From Candidatus Fermentibacteraceae bacterium (lineage in GTDB: Bacteria; Fermentibacterota; Fermentibacteria; Fermentibacterales; JCC-6), in the NCBI GenBank assembly GCA_030592635.1, contig JAUVIS010000001.1, forward strand, positions 1 through 55,186: a stretch of 55,186 nt of DNA. The letters run 5' to 3'. Position numbers and translations under genes: made by a program. The notes beneath the pieces are model-generated. The model saw nothing but the letters and a program-made list of their open reading frames with translations, was not told where the DNA came from and did no database searches. Of the stretch, positions 9,227-32,983 are shown one piece after another. Within the stretch, counting starts at the first letter, position 1. Each line of letters starts with the position of its first letter.

Positions 9227-10110
9227 GTTCCTGTCTCCCTGGGATGGTATTTTTTTACAGCGTCAGAAAGTCGTTTCCGGCTCACTGAAGTATATATCTC
9301 CGTGGTTCGAATGTCAGAGTGTCCCAGAAGCTCCTGCACAACTCTGAGATCAGCTCCTCCTTCAAGCAGATGAGTGGCGAACGAATGCCTGAGAGTATGG
9401 GGATGAATCCTGGATGCTGTTCCCGCCTTCAGCGCTGAGCTGCACACGATATTCCAGACAGTCATTCGAGAAAGAGGGTTGCCGTTTTTTGTAAGAAACA
9501 CCGTTTTCCCGCTGTGGCTTCCAGATATAGAAGCCCTCCACCTGTCGAGATAGATGCCCAGCCACTCCACAGAGGGCTGGCTCATGGGAACCATCCTCTC
9601 CTTCGCTCCCTTTCCCTGCGGACGCACCCATCCTTCATCCAGACTGAGCCTGTCAATTGTCAGAGAAACAAGCTCCCCTTCCCGCAAACCGGAACCATAG
9701 GCGAGCTCCATAAGAGCCCGGTTCCGGGCAGAGAGGGCGTCTCCGGCAGTCCAGACTTCGATAAGCAGAATCACCTCTTCCACCGAAATACAATGAGGCA
9801 TCCGATATGTCCTTGCGGGCGGTCGGAGTCCAGCCGCGGGACTCGATGTGATTATCTCCCTGCGGGTCAGATATGAGTAAAACGCTCTCAGAGAGGAAAG
9901 CTTCCTTGCTATGGTTGAGGACGCCAGCCCCTGTTTTGAGAGGTGCTGGAGCCACTGCCCCAGCTCCGCTGAATCGGAAAGAACAATATCCCCGATAAAT
10001 CCGGCAGCTTCAATCAAATCCCGCCTGTATGCGGAAACAGTATTGGGCGAAAGATTTCTTGCGAGTACTGCCCACGCAAGGAAACCATCAAGATGTTCGT
10101 CCGTGTTCAT
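9220..10110 (-). CDS. xerD: Tyrosine site-specific recombinase, XerC/XerD family
   Basis: N-terminal SAM-like core-binding region (LSPNTVSAYRRDL). C-terminal catalytic motifs HTLRHSFATHLLEGGADLRVVQELLGHSDIRTTEIYTSV. Assigning XerD rather than XerC is tentative. Confidence 0.88.
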   Translation of the reverse strand: MNTDEHLDGFLAWAVLARNLSPNTVSAYRRDLIEAAGFIGDIVLSDSAELGQWLQHLSKQGLASSTIARKLSSLRAFYSYLTRREIITSSPAAGLRPPARTYRMPHCISVEEVILLIEVWTAGDALSARNRALMELAYGSGLREGELVSLTIDRLSLDEGWVRPQGKGAKERMVPMSQPSVEWLGIYLDRWRASISGSHSGKTVFLTKNGNPLSRMTVWNIVCSSALKAGTASRIHPHTLRHSFATHLLEGGADLRVVQELLGHSDIRTTEIYTSVSRKRLSDAVKKYHPRETGTW

Positions 10111-11197
10111 TCAACCACCCAAACAGGGATCTTCCCGGAACCGGGTCTGCATTGGAAGAATATCCTGGAACAAGAGATATTGGAACTCCATGATCAGCAA
10201 GTTCTGACATGGCGACAAGGGCATCAATCCGCTCACTGAAGCCTGTTAATGCCACAGGAGCATTCCTGATAAGCTGGTGTGCCCTTTCAGGAGAGAAGTC
10301 AAGGGACTCGCACAACACATTCTGAACTCTCTCTCTCTCTTCAGAAGCCACCGGGAAAAGGTATATCAGGACAGTCTTTACTGATTGCCTGTGTTCAGGG
10401 GGAATGAAATTCAGTTGTTCTGCCGGAACAATTGCTGGAACTGAAGCAGCGGGCACAGTAAACTTGAGAATGTATGGCCGGAGATCGGCGGATCCCTCAG
10501 CTGAATCTTCCTCCACCACTGAAGGAATTGCAGTCTGCTGCAGAGAAGGAGGCAGGAAATCAACTATGCCAGGTTGAATATTACCCTGTGAGCCTGCCTG
10601 AAAGTCGGCATCCGACACCACAGGAGGAATACTGCTGCAGGTAACAGAAGATATTTGTTCCGCGCTCCCTGAAGAAGAATCAGGTGCAGTCTTTCTTTCG
10701 GAAACTGCTTTGCCGGAAGGCGGTGAATGATACTTTCTGCTTGATATGCCGATCAGATCCCCGGGAGACCGGATATCCACTATTCCCCCGGCCCTTTCCA
10801 GTATTTTTTTTATGGATTCTGCCGCAGCCCTGTCCGCATCTGATTTAAGCGCGATGGGAATGCATGCCAGAAACCGGATAACTTCCTCCGCGGGCAGACG
10901 GCTCAGTTTTTGAAGAGCGATCCTCAGCCTGCCGCGACTGCCGGGGCGATACCCCATAAGAACAGGTACGCAAGCCACCTCGTCCCGCTGCGTATAAATC
11001 TGTACTGAACCATCATTGGGCAACTCTGTCGAGAGGGCATGCGCTCTTTCCCTGGAAAGCCCTGTCTGGAGCACAAGGCCGCCGGGAGAGTCCAGCATCT
11101 CTCGAACAGAATCAATCGTTTTACCTGTTCTCGCGTACAAAACGGCAAGAATCCTGCCTGATGGATTGCTTCCCCTTAAAACAATTTTCCAGAACAT
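10088..11197 (-). CDS. Hypothetical protein with three small alpha/beta repeat modules and a Pro/Ser-rich linker
   Basis: 369-aa ORF. Three modules resemble each other (about aa 1-70, 88-145 and 290-350) and loosely resemble the ribosomal L7/L12 C-terminal fold pattern. Confidence 0.6.
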   Translation of the reverse strand: MFWKIVLRGSNPSGRILAVLYARTGKTIDSVREMLDSPGGLVLQTGLSRERAHALSTELPNDGSVQIYTQRDEVACVPVLMGYRPGSRGRLRIALQKLSRLPAEEVIRFLACIPIALKSDADRAAAESIKKILERAGGIVDIRSPGDLIGISSRKYHSPPSGKAVSERKTAPDSSSGSAEQISSVTCSSIPPVVSDADFQAGSQGNIQPGIVDFLPPSLQQTAIPSVVEEDSAEGSADLRPYILKFTVPAASVPAIVPAEQLNFIPPEHRQSVKTVLIYLFPVASEERERVQNVLCESLDFSPERAHQLIRNAPVALTGFSERIDALVAMSELADHGVPISLVPGYSSNADPVPGRSLFGWLNEHGRTS

Positions 11198-11207
11198 TCC
11201 CGCAGCC

Positions 11208-12212
11208 TCAATCCACCTGACTCCTGCTGAGATAAAGTTTGTCTCCCAGCTCTATCAGGTCTGCGGTTCTTGTACTGACTATCAGGGCAGCACAGCTTCT
11301 TGCCTCTGTTGTAAGAATTACAACATCAGCGATTGGAATTTCGGCTGTGGAAACCCACTGGTCGTCAACATCTCTGACCTGCTCACTGGCTGTGTAGGCA
11401 GTAAACACATCCCCGGGGCTGATTCCCTGAGAGCTGCCTGCGCTGAGATAAATAACATCATAAGTGTAAGCGCAGTCTCTGTCAGGATCTCTGAAACCAA
11501 GTACCCACAGCTGTCCTCTGTCAACTCCAGGCTCGTTACGGATATGAATATCTCCCGCGGCCTGGTAGGGTACAATAAAGTCACCTTCAAATATCGGGAG
11601 ATAACCGTGTCGTACTTTTGCTATGGAAGTGGAGGGTGTAGTATTCTCCACCTGACAAACTCCCGCCACCCTGATTACATGGCCTCTGTTGCCGGTATCG
11701 GGATCTTCAACTTCTTCACACTCGCGGAGGATATGGTAAACTCTGCCGACCTCGACACCCTGGTCAGCGCCGAAATCAAGCTCCAGCAAGTCACCGGGAA
11801 GTGCGGTGAGATGTCTGTAAACACCCTCCTCTTCCGCGTTTGTAGCAAGGATGTATCCCTCGGGATTCAGGGGGGAATAGCTGATAAAGCCGGCTGTCTC
11901 TCTCTGAAGGCGGGAAAGAACCGGTTCACTTGATCTGATCAGCACTGCTCCCTCCGGAATTTCAGTTACATATCTTGTTGAAGCGGATTCAGAAGTCGCT
12001 CCGGTGATATCGGGAATATGAAGTACCATTCCCGGTACCAGGTATTCAGCGCCACGCAAATCAGGATTGGCTTCAAGAATATCTACCCATTTTTCCCATG
12101 TACCGTAGTAGTGTACTGAAATATCAGAGAGGGTATCACCGTAACCAACAACATACTCACCCGCGACCGATGCAGTTGCAAGTAAGACAAACAAAAGAGT
12201 AACATACCTCAC
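11208..12212 (-). CDS. LysM domain-containing secreted protein
   Basis: Signal peptide MRYVTLLFVLLATASVAG, followed by the LysM motif YVVGYGDTLSDISVHYYG...ILEANP...LVPGMVLHIP. Confidence 0.8.
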   Translation of the reverse strand: MRYVTLLFVLLATASVAGEYVVGYGDTLSDISVHYYGTWEKWVDILEANPDLRGAEYLVPGMVLHIPDITGATSESASTRYVTEIPEGAVLIRSSEPVLSRLQRETAGFISYSPLNPEGYILATNAEEEGVYRHLTALPGDLLELDFGADQGVEVGRVYHILRECEEVEDPDTGNRGHVIRVAGVCQVENTTPSTSIAKVRHGYLPIFEGDFIVPYQAAGDIHIRNEPGVDRGQLWVLGFRDPDRDCAYTYDVIYLSAGSSQGISPGDVFTAYTASEQVRDVDDQWVSTAEIPIADVVILTTEARSCAALIVSTRTADLIELGDKLYLSRSQVD

Positions 12213-12309
12213 CAGCTCACCTCCAGCTCTATTAGTAATAGCGCATTCTCCAATATCATAACTTCATAAATTCTAAACTAAGAGCCATGGGTAAGTCAAC
12301 CTGTTGATT

Positions 12310-13029
12310 TTACCTGCCTGCCGGATAAAACACAACTGTACCCGGTCGGCTGGCGATTGTACCGGCTTTTACCGCTACTGTGTAAACTCCCCTGGAGCCC
12401 ATACTGCCTTCCAGAGGGACATTAACAGCAAGCATCAGAATACCGGGGCATGGAGATTCGCCAACCCAGCAACTGCCTGCAGCCACAGGCTGACCGTCTT
12501 CCCCCACCCGAAAGACAAGCTGACCGGAAGTTGCACCGGGAACCCTCGCGACAGAGGAGGAGTACTTTTCCTGCCCCTGCGGGGTGGAAGTGCCCGTTTC
12601 AGTCACTATTGTTCCAGTGCCCTGAAGAGAAAGCATTTCACCCTGTTCCAGTTCAATACCGGTGTTCAACCATCCCAGTGCGGCATCAACAGTGAATGTC
12701 TCCTGATCAATATCAGAATCTCCCCATACGATCAGGTAAACAGAATCCACGGGAACAGAGCTGGAGCCTGATCTGACAATTCCATTGGATGCTGTTATCT
12801 CCCCCGCAAAAGTTCTTCCGTCGAGACACCAGATGCGTCCATGGCCAGGTACATCTGTCGATCCCCCGGAGAAAACTGCCACTCCCGAGCCGATTGTCTG
12901 AAGTTCTCCCTCTAGAACTGTCCCATCCGCGGCTACCAGAAAATCGCCCGTTCCTTCCATGCATGCGGCAGAAATGAGAAAAGTCGCGATTACAATCAAA
13001 GTTGAATTAATTTGTCTCAATCTAGTCAC
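12310..13029 (-). CDS. Putative lipoprotein, beta-rich, function unknown
   Basis: Signal sequence with a lipobox-like LISAAC. 239-aa ORF whose start overlaps the lon stop by 8 nt. Confidence 0.65.
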   Translation of the reverse strand: MTRLRQINSTLIVIATFLISAACMEGTGDFLVAADGTVLEGELQTIGSGVAVFSGGSTDVPGHGRIWCLDGRTFAGEITASNGIVRSGSSSVPVDSVYLIVWGDSDIDQETFTVDAALGWLNTGIELEQGEMLSLQGTGTIVTETGTSTPQGQEKYSSSVARVPGATSGQLVFRVGEDGQPVAAGSCWVGESPCPGILMLAVNVPLEGSMGSRGVYTVAVKAGTIASRPGTVVFYPAGR

Positions 13030-15316
13030 TCCAGATAATCAGGTGATCCATTGCCTGACCGATTTCGGAAACGGGCACAAATTCCATAGCGTCTCTCTGA
13101 GCCCCTGGTACATCCTCAAGATCCCTCAGGTTCTCCTCTGGAAGTAAAACCTTCTCTATGCCGGCGGAAAGGGCACCGAGAACCTTTTCCTTGACGCCCC
13201 CAACGGGAAGCACCGCTCCACGGAGAGTAATCTCGCCGGTAACGGCAGTTCTGTTCCTGACCGGTTTCCCACTCAAAGCACTGAGAATTGAAGCTGTTAA
13301 TGCCACCCCCGCCGATGGTCCATCCTTGGGAGTAGCGCCGGCGGGAACATGAACATGTATGTCAAATTCAGCCGGATCATGAAGCAGATCCTTCCTGGAA
13401 GCTCTTATCCAGCTGAGTGCCGCCTGGGCGGATTCCTTCATTACATCGCCGAGCTGACCCGTAAGAATCAGCTTCCCGCTGCCGGGGAGCAGAAGAGTCT
13501 CTATCATAAGGATCTCGCCTCCCACAGCTGTCCATGCAAGGCCGGTGGCCACTCCAACTGCCGGTTCAGCAAGACTGGATTCCCTGGTATACTTCCATGA
13601 GCCGAGATAGTCAGAAACACTTTTTTCGGTTATCGTTGCCATTCTCAAGTCACCGCCTGCCACTTTGACCGCGCGTTTCCTGCAGATGGCACCGATAGAA
13701 CGCTCAAGTTCTCTTACTCCAGCTTCCCGGGTATAGCGTTTTACAATGCAACGCAGACCGCTTTCCCTGAATCGTATCAGGTTGCCCGAAAGACCGGTTC
13801 TCTCAACCTGTCTTTTCACCAGGTATCTCCGGGCGATCTCAAATTTATCATCCTCTGTGTATCCGGGAATGCGGATTATTTCCATTCGATCGCGAAGGGG
13901 ATCTGGAATCGTGTCAAGTGTGTTTGCTGTTGTTATAAACTTCACAAAGCTGAGATCGAACGGGGTATTCAAGTAGTTGTCTCTGAATGAAAAGTTCTGC
14001 TCCGGATCAAGTACTTCCAGCAGAGCAGAGGTGGGATCTCCTCTGTAATCTCTTCCGATCTTGTCTATCTCATCCAGCATGAATACTGGATTGGATGTAC
14101 CTGCTTCCTTAAGGCTCTGTATAATTCTTCCCGGCATTGCTCCTATGTAAGTCTTTCTGTGCCCTCTGATTTCCGCTTCATCGTGAACTCCCCCGAGGCT
14201 CAGTCTGACAAACTTCCTTCCAAGAGCTCTGGCAATGGATTTGCCCATGCTGGTTTTGCCAACACCCGGAGGTCCCACAAAGCAGATAATGGGTGCCTTG
14301 CCGTCAGGATTAAGTTTTCGAACCGCAAGGAACTCAAGGACCCTCTCCTTAACATCTTTGAGGTCGTAATGATCCTCATTGAGAATTCTCCCTGCCTCAC
14401 TAATATCAAGCCGATCCCTGGTTCTATCCATCCAGGGCAGTTGAAGTATCCACTCAATGTAACTTCTGGCCACTCCCGCTTCAGGAGAGCCGGGATGAAG
14501 TTTTGCCAGCCTTTTCAGCTCTTCTTCAGCAGCTGTGGCGGCTGACTCCGGAAGCTCCTTCTTCGACAGTTTTTCCGAAAGTTCCGAAACATCCGGATTA
14601 ATTAATGTTCCACCGAGTTCCTTCTGTATTACCTTCATTTTCTCCTTGAGGTAATACTCTTTCTGATCCTGCTCCATCTCCATCCTGACCTGACCTTCGA
14701 TGTGCTCTCGAAGCTTCAGTCTCTGAATCTCATAGTTCATCATGGATCTGAGCAGTCGGAACCTGAGGATAATGCTGTCCTCCTCAAGGAACATCTGCTT
14801 TCTGAATACAGGAGCTTCGAGACCGCTGGCGGCAACAAAGCCGAGTCTCTCCGGGTCACGGAGAAGTGTAATAAGCTGAAGCTCATCGGGAATTCCGGGA
14901 GTAAGTTCCATTATCTTCCGCAACTGTATTTCAATGGATCTGCGCCAGGCTTCCAGTTCATCCGCGTCATCCGGGTATGTGGTGCTGAGCCTCTGTACCC
15001 TTGCGCTGGCGATGTTGTCTATTTCCAGATTCTCAATGATTTTGAATCTGTACAGACCCTTGAGTGTAAGCCTTACCACATCTCCCGGAAAGCGGTACAG
15101 CTTCATTATTCCCGCGGCCGTACCCACGGAATAGCGCTCACCGGACGGAGACTCCGCCACTACTCCGATAATTTTGTTTCCTCTCACCGCGTGATCTATC
15201 ATGGCAATCATGTCAGGATCGGTTACTGTCAGGGGCAAAACTGTATAGGGCATAAGAATACCCTGATCGAACAGATGAATCGGTATGATTTCGGGTATAT
15301 CTCCGCCCTTTGTCAT
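13022..15316 (-). CDS. lon: ATP-dependent Lon protease (La)
   Basis: LON N-terminal domain, AAA+ Walker A GPPGVGKTS, Walker B FMLDEIDK, and protease active-site context PKDGPSAG. Confidence 0.96.
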   Translation of the reverse strand: MTKGGDIPEIIPIHLFDQGILMPYTVLPLTVTDPDMIAMIDHAVRGNKIIGVVAESPSGERYSVGTAAGIMKLYRFPGDVVRLTLKGLYRFKIIENLEIDNIASARVQRLSTTYPDDADELEAWRRSIEIQLRKIMELTPGIPDELQLITLLRDPERLGFVAASGLEAPVFRKQMFLEEDSIILRFRLLRSMMNYEIQRLKLREHIEGQVRMEMEQDQKEYYLKEKMKVIQKELGGTLINPDVSELSEKLSKKELPESAATAAEEELKRLAKLHPGSPEAGVARSYIEWILQLPWMDRTRDRLDISEAGRILNEDHYDLKDVKERVLEFLAVRKLNPDGKAPIICFVGPPGVGKTSMGKSIARALGRKFVRLSLGGVHDEAEIRGHRKTYIGAMPGRIIQSLKEAGTSNPVFMLDEIDKIGRDYRGDPTSALLEVLDPEQNFSFRDNYLNTPFDLSFVKFITTANTLDTIPDPLRDRMEIIRIPGYTEDDKFEIARRYLVKRQVERTGLSGNLIRFRESGLRCIVKRYTREAGVRELERSIGAICRKRAVKVAGGDLRMATITEKSVSDYLGSWKYTRESSLAEPAVGVATGLAWTAVGGEILMIETLLLPGSGKLILTGQLGDVMKESAQAALSWIRASRKDLLHDPAEFDIHVHVPAGATPKDGPSAGVALTASILSALSGKPVRNRTAVTGEITLRGAVLPVGGVKEKVLGALSAGIEKVLLPEENLRDLEDVPGAQRDAMEFVPVSEIGQAMDHLIIWSD

Positions 15317-15667: not shown

Positions 15668-17977
15668 CTACTCTATATCAAAGCGGACTTGAACCCGTGT
15701 AGTTATCTCGATGGGAACACCACCCTGTGACGCGGGATTAAACACCCACTGGCTCACCGCCGCCCGGGCTGCTGCTCCGCATCCCAGCCCGAGTTCATCG
15801 TTTACAACGGTAACATTCTTTACTGAACCGTCAGCTCCCACAAGAACATCCAGCGTGACATAACCGTGAACATCTCCCATATCTCTGGCGAGACCGGGTA
15901 CCTGGGGCCCAACCTGCGAAATGGGGAACGGAGGTATCACCGGCTGTTCCTCTGCGATCTCCTCAGGCTGATCGGGCAGAACCTCGTCTGCCGTATACCT
16001 GATACTGGCATCTTCTCCCACGACTATGGTAACAGTGCTGGTCTGATCTTCATAGTCAGGGTTGGTGAGTAACACTGTGTGTTCACCCTCTTCAAGATCA
16101 ACAGGCGCCATGGGTGTCTGACCCATGCTCACGCCGTCTATTGTCACATTAGCCCAGGGTTCCGGCGCGATGAGAAGCCTTCCCGTAGTAGAGATTTCAA
16201 CTGGAGAAACCGTTGCGCTGTATCCATCGGCAGTCAGCGTAATAGTTCTTGCCCAGCTTTCGTAGTTTTCCACTTCCACGCGCAGTGAGTGCGTTCCAAA
16301 CGGAAGAACTTCACTGATCCGGCGAACACCTGCACCAACTCTGTCACCATCAATGAAAAATACCGCGGAACCGGGAATATCTCCGGCAAGGGCGAGAGTG
16401 ACCTGCGACTCCTCCTGGGAAAGCAGCGAGAGAGAAATTTGAAGAGCTTCTTCCGAATAATCCACAAGGATTGATTCAGGAACTGAGTTGTACCCTTCCA
16501 GGACTGCCTGGAATACATACATTCCAGTGCTGAGATTGATTGAACTCTCAACTTCTTCCCCGTCAACAAACCAGGTAACTTCTCCGTCATCAGCTCCCGT
16601 AGCCTGCAGGGTAACCTGCACAGTGCTGGTTCCGATTGAGTCGAGGGTTATGGAAAGAGCTGATTCTTCACCGCTCCCGAAAAGCACTTCTTCTCTGTAG
16701 GTCTCGAAGCCCGATGAGCGTACCTCTATGGTTCTCACACCTTCCAAGTCTCCTTCAACAAGGAAGGAGCCATCCAGAAGAACATCCACTGCTTCACCAT
16801 CAATTGTTACAGAATAAGTTTCAAGGCCCTCAACGGTGTAAGAAACACTGTAGGGCTGGAAAACTTCGACTTCCTCAGGTACGATTTCAGGTTCTCCGCC
16901 ACCGAAGGGCTTAAGAACCACAAACACCACGACAAGAGCTATCACCACGAGAACGGCGGCTATCAGAGCGACAGGTTTCTTCTTCTCCGGTTTCTCTTTT
17001 AGTTCATCGGCTTCTACAGCAGGAGCGGCAGCCGGCTCTTTGCTCTTTTTCCCCGAGAGATTTTCCAGCCTGCTAACCAGTTCTTTGATAGTGCTGTTCT
17101 CCGGATGCTTCCTGCCTGCTTTCTCTGCTTCCGCGAGAGCGCCGGAAAAATCACTCCGTGATATTTTCCCTCTGATAGAGGTTATCGCGGCTTCTGCCGG
17201 AGATGTTTTCTCTTTCTCGGGAGTCGGGGGAGGGGTCTCTTCAGCTTGAACAACCTCTTCAACCTCTTCAGTTTCAAGAAGTTCTTCAGCTTCAACAACC
17301 TCTTCGGCCTCGAGTATCTCTTCCTCTTCAAGGACATCCTCAAGCTCCAGTTCCTCAATTTCCTCAACGAGCTCGTCGCTGTCAGCGGATTTGAATTCCT
17401 CCAGCTTGTCAAGAAGATCTGAGAGAACAGGTGCCCCGGGCCATATTTTGAAAATCGCCCTGGCATTCTTGACAGCTGTGACCGGATCTCCATCGTGAAG
17501 CTTGGCAAGTGCCAGATCATACAGATTGTCTGTTTTAATCTGTCGGCGCACTGTGAGAATCTTGCGACGAACCAGCTTGTTATCGGGATCATGGCGTTTG
17601 GCTCGTTCAAGCTCCTGAAGAGCGCGAACTTCATCACCCTGCCTGAAAGCATCCTCAGATCGCGCAATACACTCGTCTACAAAATCGCCCGAACTGACGG
17701 ACTTCCCCGTCTTGTGAGTTCGCGAGTCTCTGGTTTTCCTGAAGTTCCGCATAGCGGAAACTTCCCGCTCAATTTCCGAAATCCTTTTCTTAACCGATTG
17801 GTTGCCCGGGTCAATGTCAAGAACTTTGTGTAATTCGGTAAGCGCTTTCTGCCTCTCGCCCTTTTGAACGAGTTCTTCGGCAGAGTTGATAAGTCGCTGA
17901 ATCCTAGCATTTTCGCTTGCTGCCATGCCCCCCCCAGTGACCCTCCGGAGCCACAAAGAATAGTCGTTTGATAACAA
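15668..17977 (-). CDS. TPR / acidic linker / single TM / PEGA-like repeats / TonB C-terminal domain protein
   Basis: N-terminal TPR-like helices, an E/V/L-rich acidic stretch, the TM segment VALIAAVLVVIALVVVFVVL, and a PEGA-like module (PWANVTIDGVSMGQTP...GEHTVLLTNPDYED). The C-terminal TonB_C pattern is GYVTLDVLVGADGSVKNVTVV...AAARAAVSQWVFNPA. An alternative start at 17926 (MAASEN) is possible. Confidence 0.8.
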   Translation of the reverse strand: MLSNDYSLWLRRVTGGGMAASENARIQRLINSAEELVQKGERQKALTELHKVLDIDPGNQSVKKRISEIEREVSAMRNFRKTRDSRTHKTGKSVSSGDFVDECIARSEDAFRQGDEVRALQELERAKRHDPDNKLVRRKILTVRRQIKTDNLYDLALAKLHDGDPVTAVKNARAIFKIWPGAPVLSDLLDKLEEFKSADSDELVEEIEELELEDVLEEEEILEAEEVVEAEELLETEEVEEVVQAEETPPPTPEKEKTSPAEAAITSIRGKISRSDFSGALAEAEKAGRKHPENSTIKELVSRLENLSGKKSKEPAAAPAVEADELKEKPEKKKPVALIAAVLVVIALVVVFVVLKPFGGGEPEIVPEEVEVFQPYSVSYTVEGLETYSVTIDGEAVDVLLDGSFLVEGDLEGVRTIEVRSSGFETYREEVLFGSGEESALSITLDSIGTSTVQVTLQATGADDGEVTWFVDGEEVESSINLSTGMYVFQAVLEGYNSVPESILVDYSEEALQISLSLLSQEESQVTLALAGDIPGSAVFFIDGDRVGAGVRRISEVLPFGTHSLRVEVENYESWARTITLTADGYSATVSPVEISTTGRLLIAPEPWANVTIDGVSMGQTPMAPVDLEEGEHTVLLTNPDYEDQTSTVTIVVGEDASIRYTADEVLPDQPEEIAEEQPVIPPFPISQVGPQVPGLARDMGDVHGYVTLDVLVGADGSVKNVTVVNDELGLGCGAAARAAVSQWVFNPASQGGVPIEITTRVQVRFDIE

Positions 17978-20747: not shown

Positions 20748-22169
20748 ATGAAAACATGTACAGGTTTTTTCATCCTCGCGTTCATTCTTCTCATTCCATC
20801 ACCTGCTCTTTCACAGGAACGGTGGGGTTCCGATTATCTCATCGGTCACTTTATGGAGGGTCTCGTAGTCACCGGAGACGGCTACTCCAACTTCGACTGC
20901 CTCTATGGTACCAGCTCCGATGTTTTCGTTTGCTTTATCGAACACGATACGGGACCTGGCGGCGATAATTGTATACTGCGCAAATCATTCAACAACGGTA
21001 TCAGCTGGACAAGACAGAGTTCTTTCACGGGGGGCAGCTATCCTCTTCTCTCACCTTCCACCTCTCTGCTGCCATGGAACGGCAATATTTTAGTCTCCTG
21101 CGGTGTTCAACATGATCCTGATTCAGTCTGGATTGTCGGCTTTGAATATGTGTACTCCAACCTGATACTGGTTCAACAATCCGGTGAAATTGACTACTCC
21201 TACCCCGGAGCAGACCTCATAGTTCACTGCTTTTCTGTCACCAATGATGTATCGGGAGAGATTTGGATATTCGCAGTAGACTCTAACAACTGGCTTTACC
21301 TCACCAGATCATCTGATATCCTGTCCTGGACTGCCTCCGTCCCGGTTGCGGCAAATGTTTCAAGGCCCAGCGCAGTTGTTTCAGATGACGGGAGTGTCGC
21401 GGTTACCTGGATTAACCCGGTGACACAGAATGTTATGTGCTCAATTAGTGATGCTTCAGCCAACTTCCAGCCGGCAGTGGTTGTAACAGAAAACCCCGCC
21501 CCTCTGGCCGCACCTGTTCCCGCCTGGGAACACATCGGCGACAAGGATATGGGTATCGTCTGGCATGACAATGCCGGAAAATCCTACATTACAATCTCAG
21601 AAGACCAGGGCCTTTCCTGGGGTGCTGACCTGTACATTGGAGACGGCATTTACCCGTATATCAACAGCTTTCCAGGCACCAGAAGAATGGGCGTCTGCTA
21701 CACAACTTCCAGCAATGAGGTCAAAGTGGCCAGTGCTGTGAGCATGGATGCCGTTCCACTTGTTTCCTACGCAGTTCGAAGCAACCACGAAGCCTATCTT
21801 AACGGGCCATCCAGAACTGCTTTCGGAGAAAATTCCAGTCAGCTCGCGCTTTTCTTCATCACACCGACAACAGAAGACTTCTGGTACAATAACTCGGTAT
21901 TCACGGGCATTGAAAATTCAGAAGGTTCTTCAGGTATCTCGATCTCAGCTGACCCCAACCCCACCGGTGGCTCCTTCTCTGTTGCGGCAACAGGATTCAG
22001 CGGCAATGTTCAGTACACTATCTACAACCTCAGTGGCAGAATAGTTGATCAGTCACCGCTGGTGAACGGAGACTTCACAGTTAACGGTGCGATGCTTCCG
22101 GCTGGTGTATACACAGTAACCGCTGCCGGGAACGGCGAAACAGCAACCTGCAGAGTTGTTAAATTCTAG
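20748..22169 (+). CDS. Secreted BNR/Asp-box repeat protein with a T9SS-type C-terminal sorting domain
   Basis: Signal peptide MKTCTGFFILAFILLIPSPALSQE. Asp-box-like motifs SFNNGISW, SEDQGLSW and SSDILSW. The C-terminus DPNPTGGSFSV...YTIYNLSGRIV...LPAGVYTVTA...CRVVKF matches the Por/T9SS CTD pattern. Confidence 0.8.
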   Translation: MKTCTGFFILAFILLIPSPALSQERWGSDYLIGHFMEGLVVTGDGYSNFDCLYGTSSDVFVCFIEHDTGPGGDNCILRKSFNNGISWTRQSSFTGGSYPLLSPSTSLLPWNGNILVSCGVQHDPDSVWIVGFEYVYSNLILVQQSGEIDYSYPGADLIVHCFSVTNDVSGEIWIFAVDSNNWLYLTRSSDILSWTASVPVAANVSRPSAVVSDDGSVAVTWINPVTQNVMCSISDASANFQPAVVVTENPAPLAAPVPAWEHIGDKDMGIVWHDNAGKSYITISEDQGLSWGADLYIGDGIYPYINSFPGTRRMGVCYTTSSNEVKVASAVSMDAVPLVSYAVRSNHEAYLNGPSRTAFGENSSQLALFFITPTTEDFWYNNSVFTGIENSEGSSGISISADPNPTGGSFSVAATGFSGNVQYTIYNLSGRIVDQSPLVNGDFTVNGAMLPAGVYTVTAAGNGETATCRVVKF

Positions 22170-27991: not shown

Positions 27992-28042
27992 TGAAGGAAC
28001 CTCCCCGTTGTGTATGGTATATTACCTATACAAACCGGGACA

Positions 28043-28059
28043 GTCAATGTTCCATTGAC
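28043..28059 (+). promoter_or_regulatory. Perfect 7-3-7 palindrome immediately upstream of the RiPP operon SD (possible operator)
   Basis: GTCAATG-ttc-CATTGAC at 28043-28059, followed directly by GGGAG (28060-28064) and the ATG at 28070. Confidence 0.3.
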
Positions 28060-28069
28060 GGGAGCAGAC

Positions 28070-28324
28070 ATGGCAAAGCTTGAATATGCCAGAGGTGTGG
28101 TGTTCAGAAGAGAACCCGCAGGCGGCATTCTTTTTAACATCGATACAGGAAATCTCCAGGTAACCGAAGGAGTTGCCTTCGGCATCTGCGATATGATAGA
28201 CAACGGAAAAGACAGAGAAAGCATTCTTCTGGAATTGCGGAATCACTACCCGGCGGAAGAGAATCTGGAAGAAGATCTTGATGATTTTGTCAGAGAACTC
28301 AGGGAAAAAGGTGCTCTGGCTTGA
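28070..28324 (+). CDS. PqqD-family peptide-binding protein (RiPP recognition element)
   Basis: 84 aa. FRREPAGGILFNIDTGNLQVTEGVAFGICDMIDNGKDRESILLELRNHYP..EEDLDDFVRELREKGAL matches the PqqD pattern. The ATG follows a GGGAG SD. The stop overlaps the next start. Confidence 0.8.
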   Translation: MAKLEYARGVVFRREPAGGILFNIDTGNLQVTEGVAFGICDMIDNGKDRESILLELRNHYPAEENLEEDLDDFVRELREKGALA

Positions 28325-29370
28325 GTACTCCCTACTGGGTTTCTCCCCGGGAAGCCAACCTGCTTATTACAGGCGGGTGCAACCTTCGATGCAGACACTG
28401 CTCCGTGACCAGTCACGGTGACCTGGATACCGACCTTCCTCTTTCCATGTGGATAGATATCCTGGATGAACTCAAGAGGAGTAAGCTTATCAAACTCACC
28501 ATTACAGGCGGAGAACCCCTGTACAGACCGGATTTTCATGAGTTTCTAGCAGAGGTTTACAAAAGACCTTTCAGGTACTCTATCAATACCAATGGAACTC
28601 TGATAACACCGTCTATCATTGAAACGGTAAAAAAATATTCATCCAGACTCAATGATGTTATGGTCAGTCTTGATGGCCCCGATGCGAAGACCTTTGACAG
28701 TCAGAGGGGTGAAGGCGTTTTTGAGAAAATGGTTATGGGTGTAAAAATGCTCAAAACGGCAAAACTCCCCTTCGGCTTCTACTGTACGGTAACAAGTCTC
28801 AATGTGGAAAAACTGAACGAAACAGCCGGGTTCGCTCTTTCTCTTGGCGCCCACTGGATAAAATTCAACAATTTTCTCCTTGCGGGTCCAGCCCTCAACA
28901 GCTCTATGATTCCGGAGCCTGCCGAAGTCATTAATGCCACCGAAAAGCTCAGCATTCTCGCGGGAAAGCATCCGGACAAAATTCAGGGCACCATTCTTGA
29001 TATTCGTGAAAGAGCGCTTGAATACAAGAACGGCAAACTCAGCAGAACAAAGGGCAGAGCTTATTCATGCGGTGCCGGTAAAGGCAAAATTGCAATTTTC
29101 CCCGATGGAAGAGTCACTCCCTGCGACCATCTTCCTGATTTAACCCTGGGCAACATCACCATTCAGTCGCTTGAAGATATTGTCACGGGAAAAGAAATGA
29201 AAAAATTCTCAGAATTTATGGATCAGTCCCGAGAAGACTATCCTCAATGTAAAAACTGCCGGTACATCAGTTACTGCAGTGGAGGCTGTCCTGTTGAGCC
29301 ACTGAGCAGAAACGATAAAATCGGTTTTGACAGACACTCCTGCCTGAAAGTCGCACTGGGAGAACAATGA
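28321..29370 (+). CDS. Radical SAM/SPASM domain peptide maturase 1
   Basis: CNLRCRHC (CxxxCxxC) near the N-terminus and GGEPL. The C-terminal SPASM Cys set is SCGAGKGKIAIFPDGRVTPC ... CKNCRYISYCSGGCP ... HSC. TTG start with a 4-nt overlap with the PqqD-like gene. Confidence 0.9.
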   Translation: MSTPYWVSPREANLLITGGCNLRCRHCSVTSHGDLDTDLPLSMWIDILDELKRSKLIKLTITGGEPLYRPDFHEFLAEVYKRPFRYSINTNGTLITPSIIETVKKYSSRLNDVMVSLDGPDAKTFDSQRGEGVFEKMVMGVKMLKTAKLPFGFYCTVTSLNVEKLNETAGFALSLGAHWIKFNNFLLAGPALNSSMIPEPAEVINATEKLSILAGKHPDKIQGTILDIRERALEYKNGKLSRTKGRAYSCGAGKGKIAIFPDGRVTPCDHLPDLTLGNITIQSLEDIVTGKEMKKFSEFMDQSREDYPQCKNCRYISYCSGGCPVEPLSRNDKIGFDRHSCLKVALGEQ

Positions 29371-30404
29371 CATCACAACTTCCAACCCCGCGCGTTCTCT
29401 ATATCAATCCAGCCGACGGCTGTAATCTTCACTGCAAGCACTGCTGGGTGAATGAAGGCTCACGAACTGGAAAACTTCTCTCTCTGGAACAGTGGAAAGA
29501 TCTGCTTACTCAGGCAAAAGCACTGGGTGCCGGGTATGTAAAGCTCACTGGAGGAGAGCCCTTACTCTACAAAGATATCGTTCCTCTGTACCGATTCACC
29601 GCGGATATCTTTCCCCAGGTTGCCATTGAGACAAATGGAACACTTCAACCTGATGGCTTGTGGGAGACTTTCCTCAACAAGAAGCCGTTTCACGTATCAG
29701 TAAGCATTGACAGCGCCAACCCGGATATTCATGATGAATTCAGAGGGGGAACTGATGCCTGGAAAAAAACTGTAGCATTCGCAAAAAAACTGGTTGAACA
29801 CGGGATTAACAATCAGGTGATAATGTCAATAGCGGATTTAAGGAGACAACCTGTTAAAGATATGGCCAGGCTGGTTGAAAAGCTGGGAGTTTCCACGCTG
29901 AAAATTAATTTCATTATTCCGTCGGGCCGTGGAAAAAACAATAATTTTTCCCGGAACAGCCCTATCAAAGAAATTCTGGATTTTATAGCCTGGATCCATG
30001 AAGAGATGCCGGACTGGGTGCTGCCATCAGTTCCGGCCGCCCTTCTTCCTGTAAATCACCTGAAGAAACTTGGCTACTGTCCTGTGAGAAATCTCATGGG
30101 TGTTCTTCCCGATGGCATCTTTTCTCTATGCGGAGTAGCATTCTCAAGGAAAGATATGGCATGGGGAAAATTCCCGGAAACCTCTGTACAGGAAGCATGG
30201 GAAAACTCACCTGTTTACAGAATGATCAGGTCTTCTGTTCCCGGGCATCTTGAAGGGGTGTGCCGCAGGTGCATGCATAAAAACTCATGCGCGGGCAGAT
30301 GCGTGGTGAATAATCTGGAAACGGGTGGATCCATTACCAGCCCTGATATTCTCTGCCAGAGAGCATATGACGCCGGCCTTTTCCCGGAAACAAGGCTGCT
30401 GTGA
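29367..30404 (+). CDS. Radical SAM/SPASM domain peptide maturase 2
   Basis: CNLHCKHC cluster and GGEPL. C-terminal Cys-rich auxiliary-cluster region YCPVRN...LCGVAF...CRRCMHKNSCAGRC...LCQ. ATGA overlap with maturase 1. Confidence 0.9.
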   Translation: MTSQLPTPRVLYINPADGCNLHCKHCWVNEGSRTGKLLSLEQWKDLLTQAKALGAGYVKLTGGEPLLYKDIVPLYRFTADIFPQVAIETNGTLQPDGLWETFLNKKPFHVSVSIDSANPDIHDEFRGGTDAWKKTVAFAKKLVEHGINNQVIMSIADLRRQPVKDMARLVEKLGVSTLKINFIIPSGRGKNNNFSRNSPIKEILDFIAWIHEEMPDWVLPSVPAALLPVNHLKKLGYCPVRNLMGVLPDGIFSLCGVAFSRKDMAWGKFPETSVQEAWENSPVYRMIRSSVPGHLEGVCRRCMHKNSCAGRCVVNNLETGGSITSPDILCQRAYDAGLFPETRLL

Positions 30405-30934
30405 AAGAGGAGCAGAGATTCCTTTTCAGAGCGCAGACCAGAGCGGTTCTGCCACGGGGGGTAGTTCTCCACGGCTCCTCAGTTGAGCAGCATGGAAATG
30501 CTGTTGTTTTCCTGGCACCCTCCGGTGGAGGAAAATCCACTATCGCGATCAATCTGGCGCAAAAGGACTTTTTCCTTCTCGCGGATGACACGATCATTGT
30601 TGCCGACGGCAGTGATGAGATTACAAGATGTCTTCCCTGCGGGACTTTGAAACTCACAACCGGTATTGATAATATTCGCCCGGCAAACTTGAAAGCCTTC
30701 ATATTTCTTGAGAAGGGCGACCGGACTGCTCTTGTAAAACTGACCTGGGAATACGCCACATACAGGGCAATCAGAACAGAATCAATAATCGCTGTTCCTG
30801 ATCTGCATGTAAAGGAAAGGGAACAGGTAAGACTGTACCTTAAGAGGTTGTTCAAAGCATTTCCATCCTTCATCCTGAGATACTCCCTGAGAACTGACCC
30901 GTCAGAATTCATCAGGGAGTTATTGCAGAGTTGA
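30401..30934 (+). CDS. HPr kinase/phosphorylase-like P-loop protein (C-terminal-domain type)
   Basis: LHGSSVEQHGNAVVFLAPSGGGKSTIAINLAQKDFFLLADDTIIV parallels the HprK catalytic-domain pattern (LHG..V...G.GVL..G.SG.GKS..AL.L...GH.L.ADD). It overlaps the stop of maturase 2. Confidence 0.7.
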   Translation: MKEEQRFLFRAQTRAVLPRGVVLHGSSVEQHGNAVVFLAPSGGGKSTIAINLAQKDFFLLADDTIIVADGSDEITRCLPCGTLKLTTGIDNIRPANLKAFIFLEKGDRTALVKLTWEYATYRAIRTESIIAVPDLHVKEREQVRLYLKRLFKAFPSFILRYSLRTDPSEFIRELLQS

Positions 30935-30938: not shown

Positions 30939-31325
30939 TTGATCAGGGGGTGGGTAAAGGGTTTCTCCATGTTTCCGAATCTGATACCCGGTGACATTCT
31001 TTCCGCAACAGAAATCAAAGCTTTTGATCTTCGACCCGGCATGATAACAGTTTTCCGTGATGAGGATGGGAAAAACCCTGTTGTCCACAGGGTAAGATGT
31101 ATCAGGAACTTAAACAGTGAGCTGCTTATTGCAACAGCAGGAGACAACTCCGGAAATGATGCGCGTGTGAGAAGAATTGCTGTTGATTGTTCTGTTACTG
31201 TTGTGAGCGGGGTATTGAGGAAGGGAAGGTACAGAAAGATTACTCATTTTACTCCGGTAAGTCCGCTCAATCGAAGGCTCGTAATGCGGGTTTACCGTTT
31301 TGTTGTCAAATTTTTCTTCTGGTAG
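30939..31325 (+). CDS. S24/S26-family Ser peptidase, SipW/Sec11-like (S26B) motif set, no N-terminal membrane anchor
   Basis: GFSMFPNLIPGDIL (Ser box), VVHRV (His box) and TAGDNSGND (GDN box). The TTG start lies 4 nt after the previous stop, and the upstream frame has no alternative canonical start. Confidence 0.7.
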   Translation: MIRGWVKGFSMFPNLIPGDILSATEIKAFDLRPGMITVFRDEDGKNPVVHRVRCIRNLNSELLIATAGDNSGNDARVRRIAVDCSVTVVSGVLRKGRYRKITHFTPVSPLNRRLVMRVYRFVVKFFFW

Positions 31326-31350
31326 TATTATTGTGCGCGGAGGTAAAGTA

Positions 31351-31608
31351 ATGATTTTTTTTCCGAACGAATACGCAAAGCCCAGGCTGCTGGGCATTGT
31401 TGAAGCATCAGAATTCGGGTGGGGCGCTGTCTGTTCTATTGGCAATGATGCCGCTGGGGGTGGCAGCGTGTGCTCAACTGGTAATGGAGCCGGAAAAACC
31501 ACTCCAATCTGTGTTGGAGGCGGTTCCGCCGCAAAAGGCGATGTTTACCGCAGGACTTCCGATTCTGAAAGACTGTTTAATGTAGACGACATGAGTCACG
31601 GTCTTTAG
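31351..31608 (+). CDS. Candidate RiPP precursor peptide, copy 1 (85 aa, Cys/Gly-rich)
   Basis: GGAGG SD 7 nt before the ATG at 31351. The product is MIFFPNEYAKPRLLGIVEASEFGWGAVCSIGNDAAGGGSVCSTGNGAGKTTPICVGGGSAAKGDVYRRTSDSERLFNVDDMSHGL. Its substitution pattern against copy 2 is dominated by synonymous third-position changes in this frame. Confidence 0.7.
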   Translation: MIFFPNEYAKPRLLGIVEASEFGWGAVCSIGNDAAGGGSVCSTGNGAGKTTPICVGGGSAAKGDVYRRTSDSERLFNVDDMSHGL

Positions 31609-31778
31609 ATCGGGTTCTTCTCTTTAAAACAGCCAGAGCGCCCAGTCCGGGAAACACACTGAGCCGGGAGAGCTATTCTGCTCTTTACGGGAAGTGCCCG
31701 ATCAAAGCCGGGAGAACCATACCAACGAACATTATAGTGCGGATTTGCCGTTTCGTTGTCAAATTTCTCTTCCGGTAG
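31609..31778. pseudogene. Relics of both flanking genes between the two precursor copies
   Basis: 31609-31672 matches 32065-32128, the 3' end of the membrane gene. 31675-31720 matches 32565-32611, an internal piece of the same gene. About 31722-31778 matches 31268-31325, the 3' end of the peptidase gene including its TAG. Confidence 0.6.
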
Positions 31779-31803
31779 TATTATTGTTTGTGGAGGTACT
31801 GTA

Positions 31804-32064
31804 ATGAGTTTTTTCCCGGATAAATACACGAAACCTGAGTTGCTGAGCATTGTTGAGGCTTCAGAGTTCGGGTGGGGTGCTGTTTGTTCACTTGGCAATG
31901 ATGCCGCTGAGGGTGGCAGCGTGTGCTCAACTGGTAATGGAGCCGGAAAAACCACTCCAATTTGTCTTGGAGGCGGTTCGGCGTCGGGCAAAGGCGATGT
32001 TTACTACAGAACTGCCGATTCTGAAAGGCTGTTTAATGTGGACGACATGAGTCACGGTCTTTAG
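31804..32064 (+). CDS. Candidate RiPP precursor peptide, copy 2 (86 aa)
   Basis: GGAGG SD 7 nt before the ATG at 31804. The product is MSFFPDKYTKPELLSIVEASEFGWGAVCSLGNDAAEGGSVCSTGNGAGKTTPICLGGGSASGKGDVYYRTADSERLFNVDDMSHGL. Confidence 0.7.
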   Translation: MSFFPDKYTKPELLSIVEASEFGWGAVCSLGNDAAEGGSVCSTGNGAGKTTPICLGGGSASGKGDVYYRTADSERLFNVDDMSHGL

Positions 32065-32065
32065 A

Positions 32066-32983
32066 TCATGCTCTTTTCTTTAAAACAGCCAGTGCGCCCA
32101 GACCGAGAAATACACTGAACCAGAGAGTGGCGAACCTCATCAGCAGGGTTGTCACTGTTGCTGTGGCTGCCGGAAGGTAGTCGCATAATATCCCGTCGAT
32201 TGTCACTTCTGTTAATCCAAGTCCACCGGGTATCATTGATACCGCGCCTGCCACGCTGCCCGCGGCGTGTGATAAAAGGGCTGCGCCCGGTGGAAGGCTG
32301 TAACCCATGGAGGCTGCCACCACGCACAGTACAAGCGCCTCTATTCCCCATGATATCATGCCGATGGGTACAGATACCGCGAGACTCTCTGCGTCCAGGA
32401 GGGTCATTGCCGCGTTTCTGAAATCATCAAACAGGTGCTTTCTTTTCTCAAGGAATGGAATTTTGTGAGCTATCTTTGAGAAAAGGTTCCAGGCCCGTCT
32501 GTTCATAAGGACAAACATTGCCAGTGCGACAAATACCGCTCCGGCGGCAGCGGCTGGAAGAGCGATTCTGCTCTTTACGAGAAGTGCCCCGATCAAAGCC
32601 AGGAGTACCATGCTTATCAGGTCTGTAAGCCTCTCGGCGACCACAATGGAACTTGTTTTCTCGATTGGAATTCCCCTTCGGCTTTTAAGAAGACTGCATT
32701 TGATGAGTTCACCCATTTTACCGGGGGAAACAGTCATGGAAAAGCCCGCGATAAACACCAGGAAACTCTCCTTCAGCGGCACCTTCTCTTTTACTCTGTG
32801 AAGAAAGTACTGCCACTTGATAAACCTGATCCCGTAGTTGAGCAGTGGAAGGATAAGAAAAAACGGTATCCACTTCGGATTAATGGAGTCCGCTGCTGAA
32901 ATTACCTTCCGTATATCTGAGTGGAGTACAAGAACCGTGTAAAGGACAATGGCGATAACAATGCCCCATATGGCCTTCTTCAT
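32066..32983 (-). CDS. Polytopic membrane protein, UPF0104 / LPG-synthase-TM (flippase-like) family
   Basis: 305 aa with about 8 hydrophobic segments. The N-terminal pattern (KKAIWGIVIAIVLYTVLV...IRFIKWQYFL) and overall layout are recalled as typical of the flippase-like domain family. It is convergent with precursor copy 2, with 1 nt between the stops. Confidence 0.75.
   Translation of the reverse strand: MKKAIWGIVIAIVLYTVLVLHSDIRKVISAADSINPKWIPFFLILPLLNYGIRFIKWQYFLHRVKEKVPLKESFLVFIAGFSMTVSPGKMGELIKCSLLKSRRGIPIEKTSSIVVAERLTDLISMVLLALIGALLVKSRIALPAAAAGAVFVALAMFVLMNRRAWNLFSKIAHKIPFLEKRKHLFDDFRNAAMTLLDAESLAVSVPIGMISWGIEALVLCVVAASMGYSLPPGAALLSHAAGSVAGAVSMIPGGLGLTEVTIDGILCDYLPAATATVTTLLMRFATLWFSVFLGLGALAVLKKRA

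Follow-up and report, generated by a model that had tools for sequence, protein, structure and literature searches.

In a stretch of 55,186 nucleotides from a Candidatus Fermentibacteraceae bacterium, referred to here as the window, two neighboring small open reading frames (ORFs), pepA (31351-31608, plus strand, 85 aa) and pepB (31804-32064, plus strand, 86 aa), very probably encode tandem-duplicated precursors of a peptide synthesized ribosomally and modified after translation (RiPP), and the pathway that acts on them a divergent, Fermentibacterota-specific branch of the SynChlorMet (SCM) cassette. The two ORFs are paralogs of equal architecture, with Cys at residues 28, 41 and 54 of each. 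They form the end of a plus-strand operon whose preceding genes encode, in order, a PqqD-like protein, two radical S-adenosylmethionine (rSAM)/SPASM enzymes, a ScmC/HprK-like protein and an S26-type peptidase. A GGAGGT Shine-Dalgarno sequence lies 6 nt upstream of the pepA start and likewise of the pepB start. The initial annotation of this region had described the paralogous pair, the three Cys positions and the motifs V-C-S-x-G-N-x-A (twice) and I-C-x-G-G-G-S-A (once), and all of these were found in both peptides where it had placed them.

The pepA product can be divided into a leader of about residues 1-19 (F4, Y8-x-x-P11-x-L13, V17-x-A19) followed by G23-W24, three C-x-x-G-x-x-A units beginning at C28, C41 and C54, and a conserved tail of about residues 64-85. 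The leader segment is EYAKPRLLGI in pepA and KYTKPELLSI in pepB. Codon alignment of the two genes gave 57 identical codons, 16 that differ only synonymously, 12 replacements and one single-codon indel. The synonymous and indel counts are those of the initial annotation, which had listed 11 replacements; its placement of six replacements in residues 1-15 and three in the Cys region (I30L, G36E and V55L) was reproduced. The 33 base differences are distributed 11/4/18 over codon positions 1, 2 and 3. The two copies have the same protein sequence in the C-terminal tail (DSERLFNVDDMSHGL) and not a single base difference in codons 37-52 (GGSVCSTGNGAGKTTP), both as previously claimed. The latter block lies within a 51-nt identical run (31459-31509 versus 31912-31962), against a divergence of 13% elsewhere (shuffle P = 0.013), which suggests either partial gene conversion or a constraint at the nucleotide level.

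Translation of the pair under purifying selection had been argued from a manual alignment, and the formal calculation bears this out. The ratio of nonsynonymous to synonymous substitution rates (dN/dS, Nei-Gojobori) is 0.19 in the annotated frame, the lowest of the six frames; the other five range from 0.29 to 2.3, and the substitutions do not fit an alternative frame. When the 33 substitutions were scattered randomly with the transition/transversion mix maintained, 21.5 +/- 2.4 codons changed their amino acid, versus the 12 observed, and none of 20,000 trials reached so low a number (P < 5e-5). A deep-branching relative, L024, carries its own two tandem peptide genes, duplicated independently of those in the window, and these give a dN/dS of 0.31 in frame versus 1.42 and 0.89. 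The sense frame was the only one free of internal stops in 14 of 14 orthologous or paralogous peptide genes. These comparisons of sequence support translation of pepA and pepB in the sense frame and purifying selection on them.

Relatives of the peptides were sought in several ways. A genome scan with the ScmF-like enzyme, the second of the two maturases, identified seven loci, all in metagenome-assembled genomes (MAGs) of Candidatus Fermentibacterota (Aegiribacteria, Sabulitectum and Fermentibacteraceae), and in six of the seven a homologous small ORF is located directly 3' of the same five genes. Used singly as the query of a word-indexed search, a peptide retrieved nothing beyond itself and its paralog, and it took an exhaustive HMMER profile search of 1.84 billion representatives to reveal the family. 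That search identified 16 small proteins of 70-88 aa, and a profile search of a 5.8-billion-cluster collection identified 23 clusters, none with a functional name. Neither pepA nor pepB matched any Pfam or NCBIfam model, even at E <= 10, and in most assemblies the peptide genes lack a name or were not called at all. The peptide profile also matched, in five stretches (E 1.6e-7), a repetitive 519-aa protein rich in Ser, Pro, Thr and Gly (P0013); this is most likely a low-complexity artefact. No further peptide copies were found elsewhere in the window.

In an alignment of 22 sequences, F4, Y8, P11, L13, G23, W24, C28, G31, C41 and G44 are invariant and A19 reaches a conservation of 90% or more. 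Pairwise identity averages 0.54 in the leader, 0.38 in the Cys region and 0.39 in the tail. Spacing and unit number were scored in 28 members. The distance from the leader Tyr to the first Cys is exactly 20 residues in all 28; the spacing of the first and second Cys is 13 residues in 20 members, 12 in seven and 14 in one. Sixteen members have a third Cys, usually 12 residues past the second, and 12 lack it. The unit logo consists of C(0), G(+3) at 88% and P/A(+6) at 73%. As read from these predicted peptides, the rule for the family is a pair of obligatory C-x-x-G-x-x-(P/A) units, set at a fixed distance from the leader, to which a third may be added. The exact 13-residue Cys period proposed initially is thus true of pepA and pepB and does not extend to the family, in which 13 is the modal spacing and the third Cys is variable; it is a property of this genome's copies. 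Moreover, since one tandem duplication gave rise to both copies, its presence in the two counts as a single observation. The corollary that three evenly spaced Cys imply three crosslinks was over-specific, and the longer V-C-S-x-G-N-x-A-type motif was too long as a description of the conserved unit.

Two other parts of the proposed layout fared better. The N-terminal region has the character of a leader. It contains, as an invariant Y8-x-x-P11-x-L13, the YxxPxL motif known from lasso-peptide leaders, and it occurs near a PqqD-like RiPP recognition element (RRE), the combination that, at the level of sequence, marks an RRE-dependent RiPP precursor. The C-terminal follower is indeed unusual. Most members end in a tail of the form RL(I/L/F)NP(G/D)D(V/M)xxGL, and the distance from the last Cys to the C-terminus is 19-40 residues, versus 6-9 in canonical SCM peptides.

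The first gene of the cassette encodes the PqqD-like RRE (28010-28324, plus strand, 104 aa from the first GTG), which scores 35.7 bits against Pfam PqqD, above the cutoff of 23.4, and supplies the PqqD member of an SCM cassette. Its orthologs, at the equivalent position in related loci, are 44-81% identical and were mostly called at 83-84 aa, with a maximum of 106, and the true start may lie further downstream than the first GTG. Its stop overlaps the start of the gene for maturase 1 (28321-29370, plus strand, 349 aa), which contains Radical_SAM and SPASM domains, a CNLRCRHC motif and the full seven-Cys SPASM motif. The best NCBIfam match of maturase 1 is TIGR04250 ScmE, at 168.6 bits (cutoff 400; next family 115), and its nearest sequences in the PDB are anSME, SkfB, PqqE and CteB, at about 50 bits. 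Maturase 2 (29367-30404, plus strand, 345 aa; CNLHCKHC and seven invariant SPASM Cys) is best matched by TIGR04251 ScmF, at 231.3 bits (cutoff 400; next family 117), and relatives 67-75% identical to it carry the name ScmF at the Joint Genome Institute (JGI). The CxxxCxxC motif and all seven SPASM Cys are invariant in both maturases. An AlphaFold2 model of the ScmF-like enzyme (mean predicted local distance difference test score 87.6) has no N-terminal RRE domain, which fits a discrete PqqD partner; its structural neighbors in the PDB are SuiB and anSME (template modeling (TM) score 0.73), SkfB (0.65) and PqqE (0.63).

The fourth gene (30401-30934, plus strand) encodes a 177-aa ScmC-like, HPr-kinase-like P-loop protein that comprises the catalytic domain only. 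Its matches to Hpr_kinase_C (26 bits), TIGR04352 (33.6 bits) and TIGR04249 ScmC (23.1 bits, cutoff 125) are all below cutoff; its orthologs have precomputed matches to Pfam PF27840 ScmC, some of them weak. In 13 sequences compared, the P-loop SGGGKST is conserved, as is a DD motif, and HprK structures match over the P-loop (E ~0.007). The fifth gene (30939-31325, plus strand, 128 aa) encodes a probable S26-type peptidase of the endoplasmic reticulum/archaeal/SipW-type Ser-His group. No N-terminal membrane anchor is visible in its sequence. It scores 46.2 bits against TIGR02228 sigpep_I_arch, just under the cutoff of 51.85, and its SM(W/F)P, VHR and GDxSG boxes are conserved in 12 orthologs. 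This apparently soluble enzyme is the candidate leader peptidase.

The order PqqD-rSAM-rSAM-ScmC-like-S26-peptide was found in L001-L003, L005-L010, L013, L014 and L021, and in L024 this gene set recurs with an inversion of the S26-peptide unit (7618-8599, minus strand, comprising the S26 gene and the two tandem peptide genes; one of these copies has Asp where the other has the third Cys). Cassette and chromosomal neighborhood are maintained even at maturase identities of 38-43% (L008, L021, L024). In every adequately sampled Fermentibacterota locus, predicted homologous peptides follow the five cassette genes. The association of the precursors with two rSAM/SPASM maturases, proposed initially from the window, is conserved in gene order across the loci of Fermentibacterota, an uncultured phylum, and homologous small ORFs, whose absence beside related maturases would have spoken against it, are present throughout the phylum.

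The resemblance to the SCM cassette extends from the enzymes to the substrates. For comparison we used canonical SCM loci from Methanospirillum, from Omnitrophica and Saganbacteria MAGs and from L017, together with 80 metagenome loci in which ScmF is 30-38% identical. These contain PqqD, ScmE, ScmF and a full-length ScmC, and often an ABC exporter (as in L015, L018 and L022). As in the window, ScmE-best and ScmF-best rSAM/SPASM enzymes follow a PqqD-like gene in order and are accompanied by a P-loop protein of the ScmC type. S26-like genes occur in the canonical cassettes L018 and L022, and a hidden Markov model (HMM) built from window-type S26 orthologs detected an S26-like peptidase in 33 of the 80 SCM-type loci. 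A small ORF with at least two regularly spaced C-x-x-G motifs in a stretch rich in Gly, Ser, Ala, Thr or Pro is present in 52 of the 80 (10 in the reversed-sequence control), and when a [YF]xxPx[LVIAM] leader was also required, 41 retained such an ORF and the reversed-sequence control none. The canonical leader consensus, (K/R)-Y-E-(K/P)-P-x-L-x-x-L, is the same motif as in pepA and pepB, and the canonical unit logo, with G(+3) at 84% and A/P(+6) at 62%, is that of the Fermentibacterota family.

Profile comparisons point the same way. Alignment of the Fermentibacterota and canonical peptides by hhalign gave a probability of 94.3% (E 1.1e-7) over the leader and first two units, and 89.8% with a 5-sequence profile; the family HMM reaches some canonical peptides directly (L030, E 2.7e-6). 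The curated precursor model TIGR04252 SCM_precur_ScmA matches 12 of 30 canonical C-x-x-G peptides (best E 4.3e-6) and so does describe this type of peptide, while missing the Methanospirillum peptide and most of the canonical peptides. Because the leader motif, the unit and the enzyme set are shared, common descent appears to be the simplest reading of the two peptide groups, and the system is already classifiable as a divergent, phylum-specific branch of the SCM/ScmA family, which has been defined in silico and has curated models. We searched the literature and found no experimental account of an SCM product or its chemistry.

The branch differs from canonical SCM systems in several respects. 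Its peptides contain 2-3 units spaced 12-13 residues apart, whereas canonical peptides contain 3-15 Cys at intervals of 10-11 residues and end 6-9 residues past the last. The invariant G-W before the first Cys and the fixed 20-residue Tyr-Cys1 distance are features of the Fermentibacterota peptides, as is the conserved C-terminal tail, which canonical peptides lack. The ScmC-like protein is a P-loop domain of about 175 aa in contrast to the 265-366 aa of canonical ScmC. Finally, no ABC exporter is nearby, and the locus is chromosomally fixed within one phylum.

A pathway can be proposed from these components. Each peptide gene would be expressed from its own promoter-like site, provided that transcription does begin there, and translated from its strong Shine-Dalgarno sequence. 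Neither maturase has a fused RRE, and the leader YxxPxL would be bound by the discrete PqqD-like RRE, by analogy to the lasso B1 protein; YxxPxL is the leader motif of actinobacterial lasso peptides, where it interacts with the B1/RRE protein (PMC6784204). The RRE would then present the peptide to the ScmE-like and ScmF-like enzymes. That the first Cys always lies 20 residues past the leader Tyr fits presentation in a fixed register. The two rSAM enzymes would modify the C-x-x-G-x-x-(P/A) units, two of them obligatory and one optional, with three in the peptides of the window. The likeliest product would be one small intramolecular thioether ring per unit, joining the Cys sulfur to a nearby carbon. 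The invariant Gly(+3) could be the acceptor, by the precedent of streptosactin and its 4-residue sactionine rings, and the second rSAM enzyme could install a second type of link or serve a subset of the units. The ScmC/HprK-like protein may provide an ATP-dependent step, possibly phosphorylation of Ser or Thr; HPr-kinase homologs phosphorylate lasso precursors such as that of paeninodin (PMC8498205). The soluble S26-type peptidase would remove the leader, probably after V17-x-A19.

Several observations weigh against this assignment or against parts of the pathway. The ScmA model (cutoff 35 bits) has no match at E <= 10 in pepA, pepB or six other family members, and the cassette proteins miss every SCM equivalog cutoff (169 of 400 bits for ScmE, 231 of 400 for ScmF and 23 of 125 for ScmC), although ScmE and ScmF are still the best families of the two maturases, by more than 50 and more than 110 bits. 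The Cys region is compositionally simple (Gly, Ser, Ala, Thr, Pro), which can inflate profile-profile scores such as those from hhalign. The V-x-A pattern at the predicted cleavage site is permissive, being present in 20 of 22 family members and also in 18 of 30 canonical peptides. One locus, L004, has the cassette (7960-13044 of a 305-kb MAG contig), and no peptide was found within 5 kb downstream of it; the flippase-like gene was not detected downstream either, and a rearrangement like that of L019, described below, is likely. No exporter or immunity gene was found within about 7 kb of the window's cassette, unlike several canonical SCM loci, and the location of the cassette among housekeeping genes with no exporter nearby makes the role of a classical secreted bacteriocin doubtful. 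Lastly, the nearest characterized maturases score only about 50 bits and catalyze differing reactions (SkfB and CteB form thioethers, anSME oxidizes Cys, and SuiB and PqqE make C-C crosslinks), so that the chemistry is not readable from homology. An attempt to choose a chemistry from sequence or structure neighbors in the PDB was uninformative, with SuiB, SkfB, anSME and PqqE about equally distant.

Thioether crosslinking at the C-x-x-G units is plausible, by analogy to characterized systems. One competing reading, to which we give perhaps three chances in ten in informal terms, accepts the precursors and denies that their Cys are thioether donors. Modification would then consist of Cys oxidation, of C-C or C-O crosslinks (for example at Trp24), of epimerization or of changes to the tail, with the Cys serving as metal ligands, disulfides or recognition elements. 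The closest PDB relative of the ScmE-like enzyme is anSME, tied with SkfB, and the structural neighbors of the ScmF-like enzyme include the C-C crosslinkers SuiB and PqqE, a match reported as equal to or better than that of SkfB in TM score (values above). G23-W24 is invariant in the Fermentibacterota family, and two different rSAM enzymes suggest at least two chemistries. Canonical peptides, however, have neither a conserved Trp before the first Cys nor a tail, yet both ScmE and ScmF are retained in their cassettes. All substrates have in common just two features, the leader and the C-x-x-G-x-x-A/P units, which argues that the units are the shared target; among substrates of thioether-forming rSAM enzymes, repeats that contain Cys are typical. 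By the same comparison, the tail is not required by ScmE and ScmF as such. It co-occurs with the truncated ScmC, the lack of an exporter nearby and the fixed location by the flippase-like and TPR genes, and it may have a role in partner binding or localization or be a site of further modification.

The surroundings of the cassette raise the separate question of what the product does. The flanking genes are of housekeeping type: SecA and RecG are encoded upstream, and downstream come genes for the flippase-like LPG_synthase_TM protein, a TPR protein, PBP1 and a T2SSE ATPase. A housekeeping, cell-associated product in place of a secreted antimicrobial, either a cofactor resembling pyrroloquinoline quinone (PQQ) or mycofactocin or an envelope-associated peptide whose tail is functional or binds a partner, seems to us unlikely, if well short of negligible. 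The pathways of PQQ and mycofactocin use PqqD-like RRE, rSAM/SPASM and peptidase components. The position of the locus, from the SecA side to the flippase-like/TPR/PBP1/T2SSE side, is fixed throughout the phylum and indicates vertical inheritance. ABC exporter and immunity genes are missing from the vicinity, in contrast to the exporters of canonical L015, L018 and L022; the tail is conserved; and after an inversion that removes the cassette, the peptide gene is still accompanied by the flippase-like and TPR genes. Yet the Cys region is variable (identity 0.38 versus 0.54 for the leader) and lineage-specific, diverged duplications have occurred, both of which are more typical of diversifying bioactive peptides than of cofactors; those cofactors known to derive from peptides originate in motifs that are very short and strictly conserved. 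Nor is synteny alone a proof of a functional link to the flippase-like and TPR genes. A broader conjecture, to be taken as tentative and on the whole improbable, combines elements of both discussions: the C-x-x-G-x-x-(P/A) units would undergo an undescribed rSAM modification by ScmE and ScmF together with an ATP-dependent ScmC step, and the Fermentibacterota product would be cell-associated and vertically inherited instead of being a secreted bacteriocin, with the tail docking it to a partner, for example one of the neighboring TPR or flippase-like envelope proteins.

That the ORFs are conserved small proteins merely adjoining the cassette, whose substrate is encoded elsewhere or is not a peptide, is highly improbable. 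The case for it comes from loci in which the two parts are separate: L011 and L012 have intact peptide genes without adjacent maturases, L004 and L019 have cassettes without an adjacent peptide, and the peptide gene has a promoter-like site of its own. In L012 the peptide gene and flippase-like gene are present without the cassette, and in L020 the cassette is present without the peptide; both derive from JGI sample 3300039254. Downstream of the L019 cassette are the genes that normally lie upstream of it, in inverted orientation. The arrangement of these loci (L011/L012 versus L019/L020) is that of one inversion which, with a predicted breakpoint between the S26 and peptide genes, split the cassette from the peptide. 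After the inversion the peptide gene is still beside the flippase-like and TPR genes, and its separation from the cassette fits a gene with its own promoter. We had considered treating the L012 peptide as an orphan and hence not a substrate; this was rejected, since a single inversion accounts for the L012 and L020 halves, which share a sample of origin. In addition, peptides with the leader and C-x-x-G units accompany ScmE and ScmF in distant phyla and in very dissimilar genomic surroundings (41 of 80 loci versus 0 of 80 controls), a co-occurrence that would be difficult to account for if the two had no functional link, and the leader contains an RRE-type recognition motif while the cassette encodes a discrete RRE.

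The chance that the real gene is antisense (31110-31502 and 31605-31991, minus strand) or that the region is non-coding repeat DNA is virtually nil and the alternative was rejected: although two antisense ORFs of 128-130 aa exist and the frame sharing third codon positions has the second-lowest dN/dS (0.29), that low value is the expected echo of the shared third positions, every antisense frame has stops in both peptide genes and in most orthologs, the sense frame alone is uninterrupted in all 14 genes, and sense-frame homologs occur phylum-wide.

With pepA and pepB taken as precursors of a divergent SCM branch, comparison with characterized RiPP systems helps to place them. Sactipeptides have a thioether from the Cys sulfur to an alpha-carbon, made by an rSAM enzyme; of these features the locus shows rSAM/SPASM enzymes and conserved Cys. 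The type 2 sactipeptide streptosactin (GggA/GggB) has small unnested rings formed by an rSAM/SPASM enzyme between a Cys and the residue three positions away, and contains a pair of 4-residue sactionine rings (PMC9389541). Rings of this kind would fit the invariant Cys(i)...Gly(i+3) pairs described here. The Fermentibacterota units differ in lying 12-13 residues apart and being followed by a long tail. Each streptococcal system that the review (PMC9389541) describes was attributed to a single rSAM enzyme. Ranthipeptides and SCIFF peptides (PapB, CteB) and QhpD-type thioether maturases resemble the proposed pathway in that rSAM/SPASM enzymes act on repeated Cys motifs. Against the two maturases, the models for PapB and StsB reach 83-103 bits, PapB with 96.6 bits being below its 340-bit cutoff, and CteB (5wgg) is matched at E 1e-9; no SCIFF-type precursor match was obtained. 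Ranthipeptide units are of the Cys...Asp/Asn/Thr type, with beta or gamma linkages, whereas the conserved partner positions here are Gly(+3) and Pro/Ala(+6), and the family models score far below cutoff. With regard to the sactipeptides, we know of no ScmC or S26 partner in the streptococcal systems.

Lasso systems such as those of paeninodin and pseudomycoidin share the YxxPxL leader, the discrete PqqD-like protein and the HPr-kinase-like P-loop protein. Among 30 canonical SCM peptides, two have weak matches to lasso-leader or paeninodin-family models (E ~0.02), which reflects the shared leader motif, and canonical L018 and L022 carry a nucleotidyltransferase (NTP_transf_5), as do clusters for phosphoglycosylated lasso peptides. 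The differences are that no lasso cyclase or B2 protease is encoded here, that the core is rich in Cys and Gly and does not form a lasso fold, and that the ScmC-like protein is a putative kinase.

The SCM cassette is widespread in anaerobes: it was recovered from Omnitrophica, Saganbacteria, Methanospirillum and Thermodesulfobacteriota, and one scan confirmed at least 548 metagenome stretches encoding ScmF relatives. Within it, the Fermentibacterota branch provides a minimal substrate, with two obligatory units, a fixed leader-Cys register and five compact enzyme genes. Together with the intact catalytic motifs of the enzymes, this makes it a convenient entry point for reconstitution. The analysis defines the repeat unit as C-x-x-G-x-x-A/P, identifies a YxxPxL leader common with lasso peptides, points to a soluble S26 enzyme as the probable type of leader peptidase and describes a conserved follower specific to the subfamily. 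We know of no report of a soluble S26-type leader peptidase in RiPP pathways. For annotation, it is of consequence that the curated ScmA model misses the Fermentibacterota branch and most canonical peptides.

The duplication that produced pepA and pepB has a period of 453 bp. The duplicated unit includes about 70 nt upstream of the gene, which contain the end of the S26 gene, a promoter-like site and the Shine-Dalgarno sequence, and about 57 nt downstream. The upstream block preceding pepB (31734-31803, plus strand) consists of an S26 3'-end remnant, a copy of the promoter-like site (31756-31784) and the Shine-Dalgarno sequence; 58 of its 70 nt are the same as in 31281-31350, and both promoter hexamers are unchanged. 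Downstream of pepA, 31609-31665 is left over from duplication of the 3' end of the flippase-like gene on the minus strand; 48 of these 57 nt are the same as in 32065-32121, which is the genuine 3' end of that gene (32066-32983). Fragments of the flippase-like and S26 3' ends thus remain between pepA and pepB as non-functional remnants.

The promoter-like site before pepA, TTGTCA-17 nt-TATTAT (31303-31331, plus strand), matches the consensus at 10 of 12 positions. The final codons of the S26 gene contain its -35 hexamer, and its -10 hexamer is in non-coding DNA just past the S26 stop. The element TTGTCA-17-TAT(T/C)AT is maintained upstream of the peptide gene in L001, L002, L003, L006, L007 and L013; in L011, where the locus is rearranged, it is weaker. 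From its match to the consensus it is a predicted promoter, and we infer transcription from it. The pepB stop is 1 nt from the stop of the convergent flippase-like LPG_synthase_TM gene (32062-32068 of the window), and in L008 the corresponding two genes overlap stop-to-stop by 4 nt (7246-7249). Adjacency of the peptide and flippase-like genes is kept in every locus with sequence downstream of the peptide gene, except L001.

Several canonical SCM loci are more elaborate than the window. L017 (9092-11709) encodes three complete paralogous precursors and a partial fourth, along with a sulfotransferase, an additional radical SAM gene and two ScmC/HprK-like genes, which looks like more elaborate tailoring. 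Canonical precursors of 125-155 aa in L075 (657-1118), L095 (3316-3795), L038 (9240-9638) and L070 (9256-9729) have 7-12 consecutive C-x-x-G-x-x-A units with a period of 10-11 residues, and are thus longer arrays than those of the window. In a further subtype of SCM peptide, the C-x-x-G units are followed by a second, Cys-dense module (CC, CxC and aromatic residues) that ends at or near a Cys; members are encoded in L051 (5817-6215), L061 (1405-1803), L091 (5021-5389), L098 (2182-2589), L043 (6696-7139) and L040 (1686-2183), and may represent a distinct product class. Scans of the window for tRNAs and Rfam families gave no matches. Elsewhere in the window, unrelated to the peptides, are a protein with a type IX secretion system Por_Secre_tail sorting domain (20748-22169, plus strand) and a large protein with TPR, PEGA and TonB_C domains (15668-17977, minus strand).

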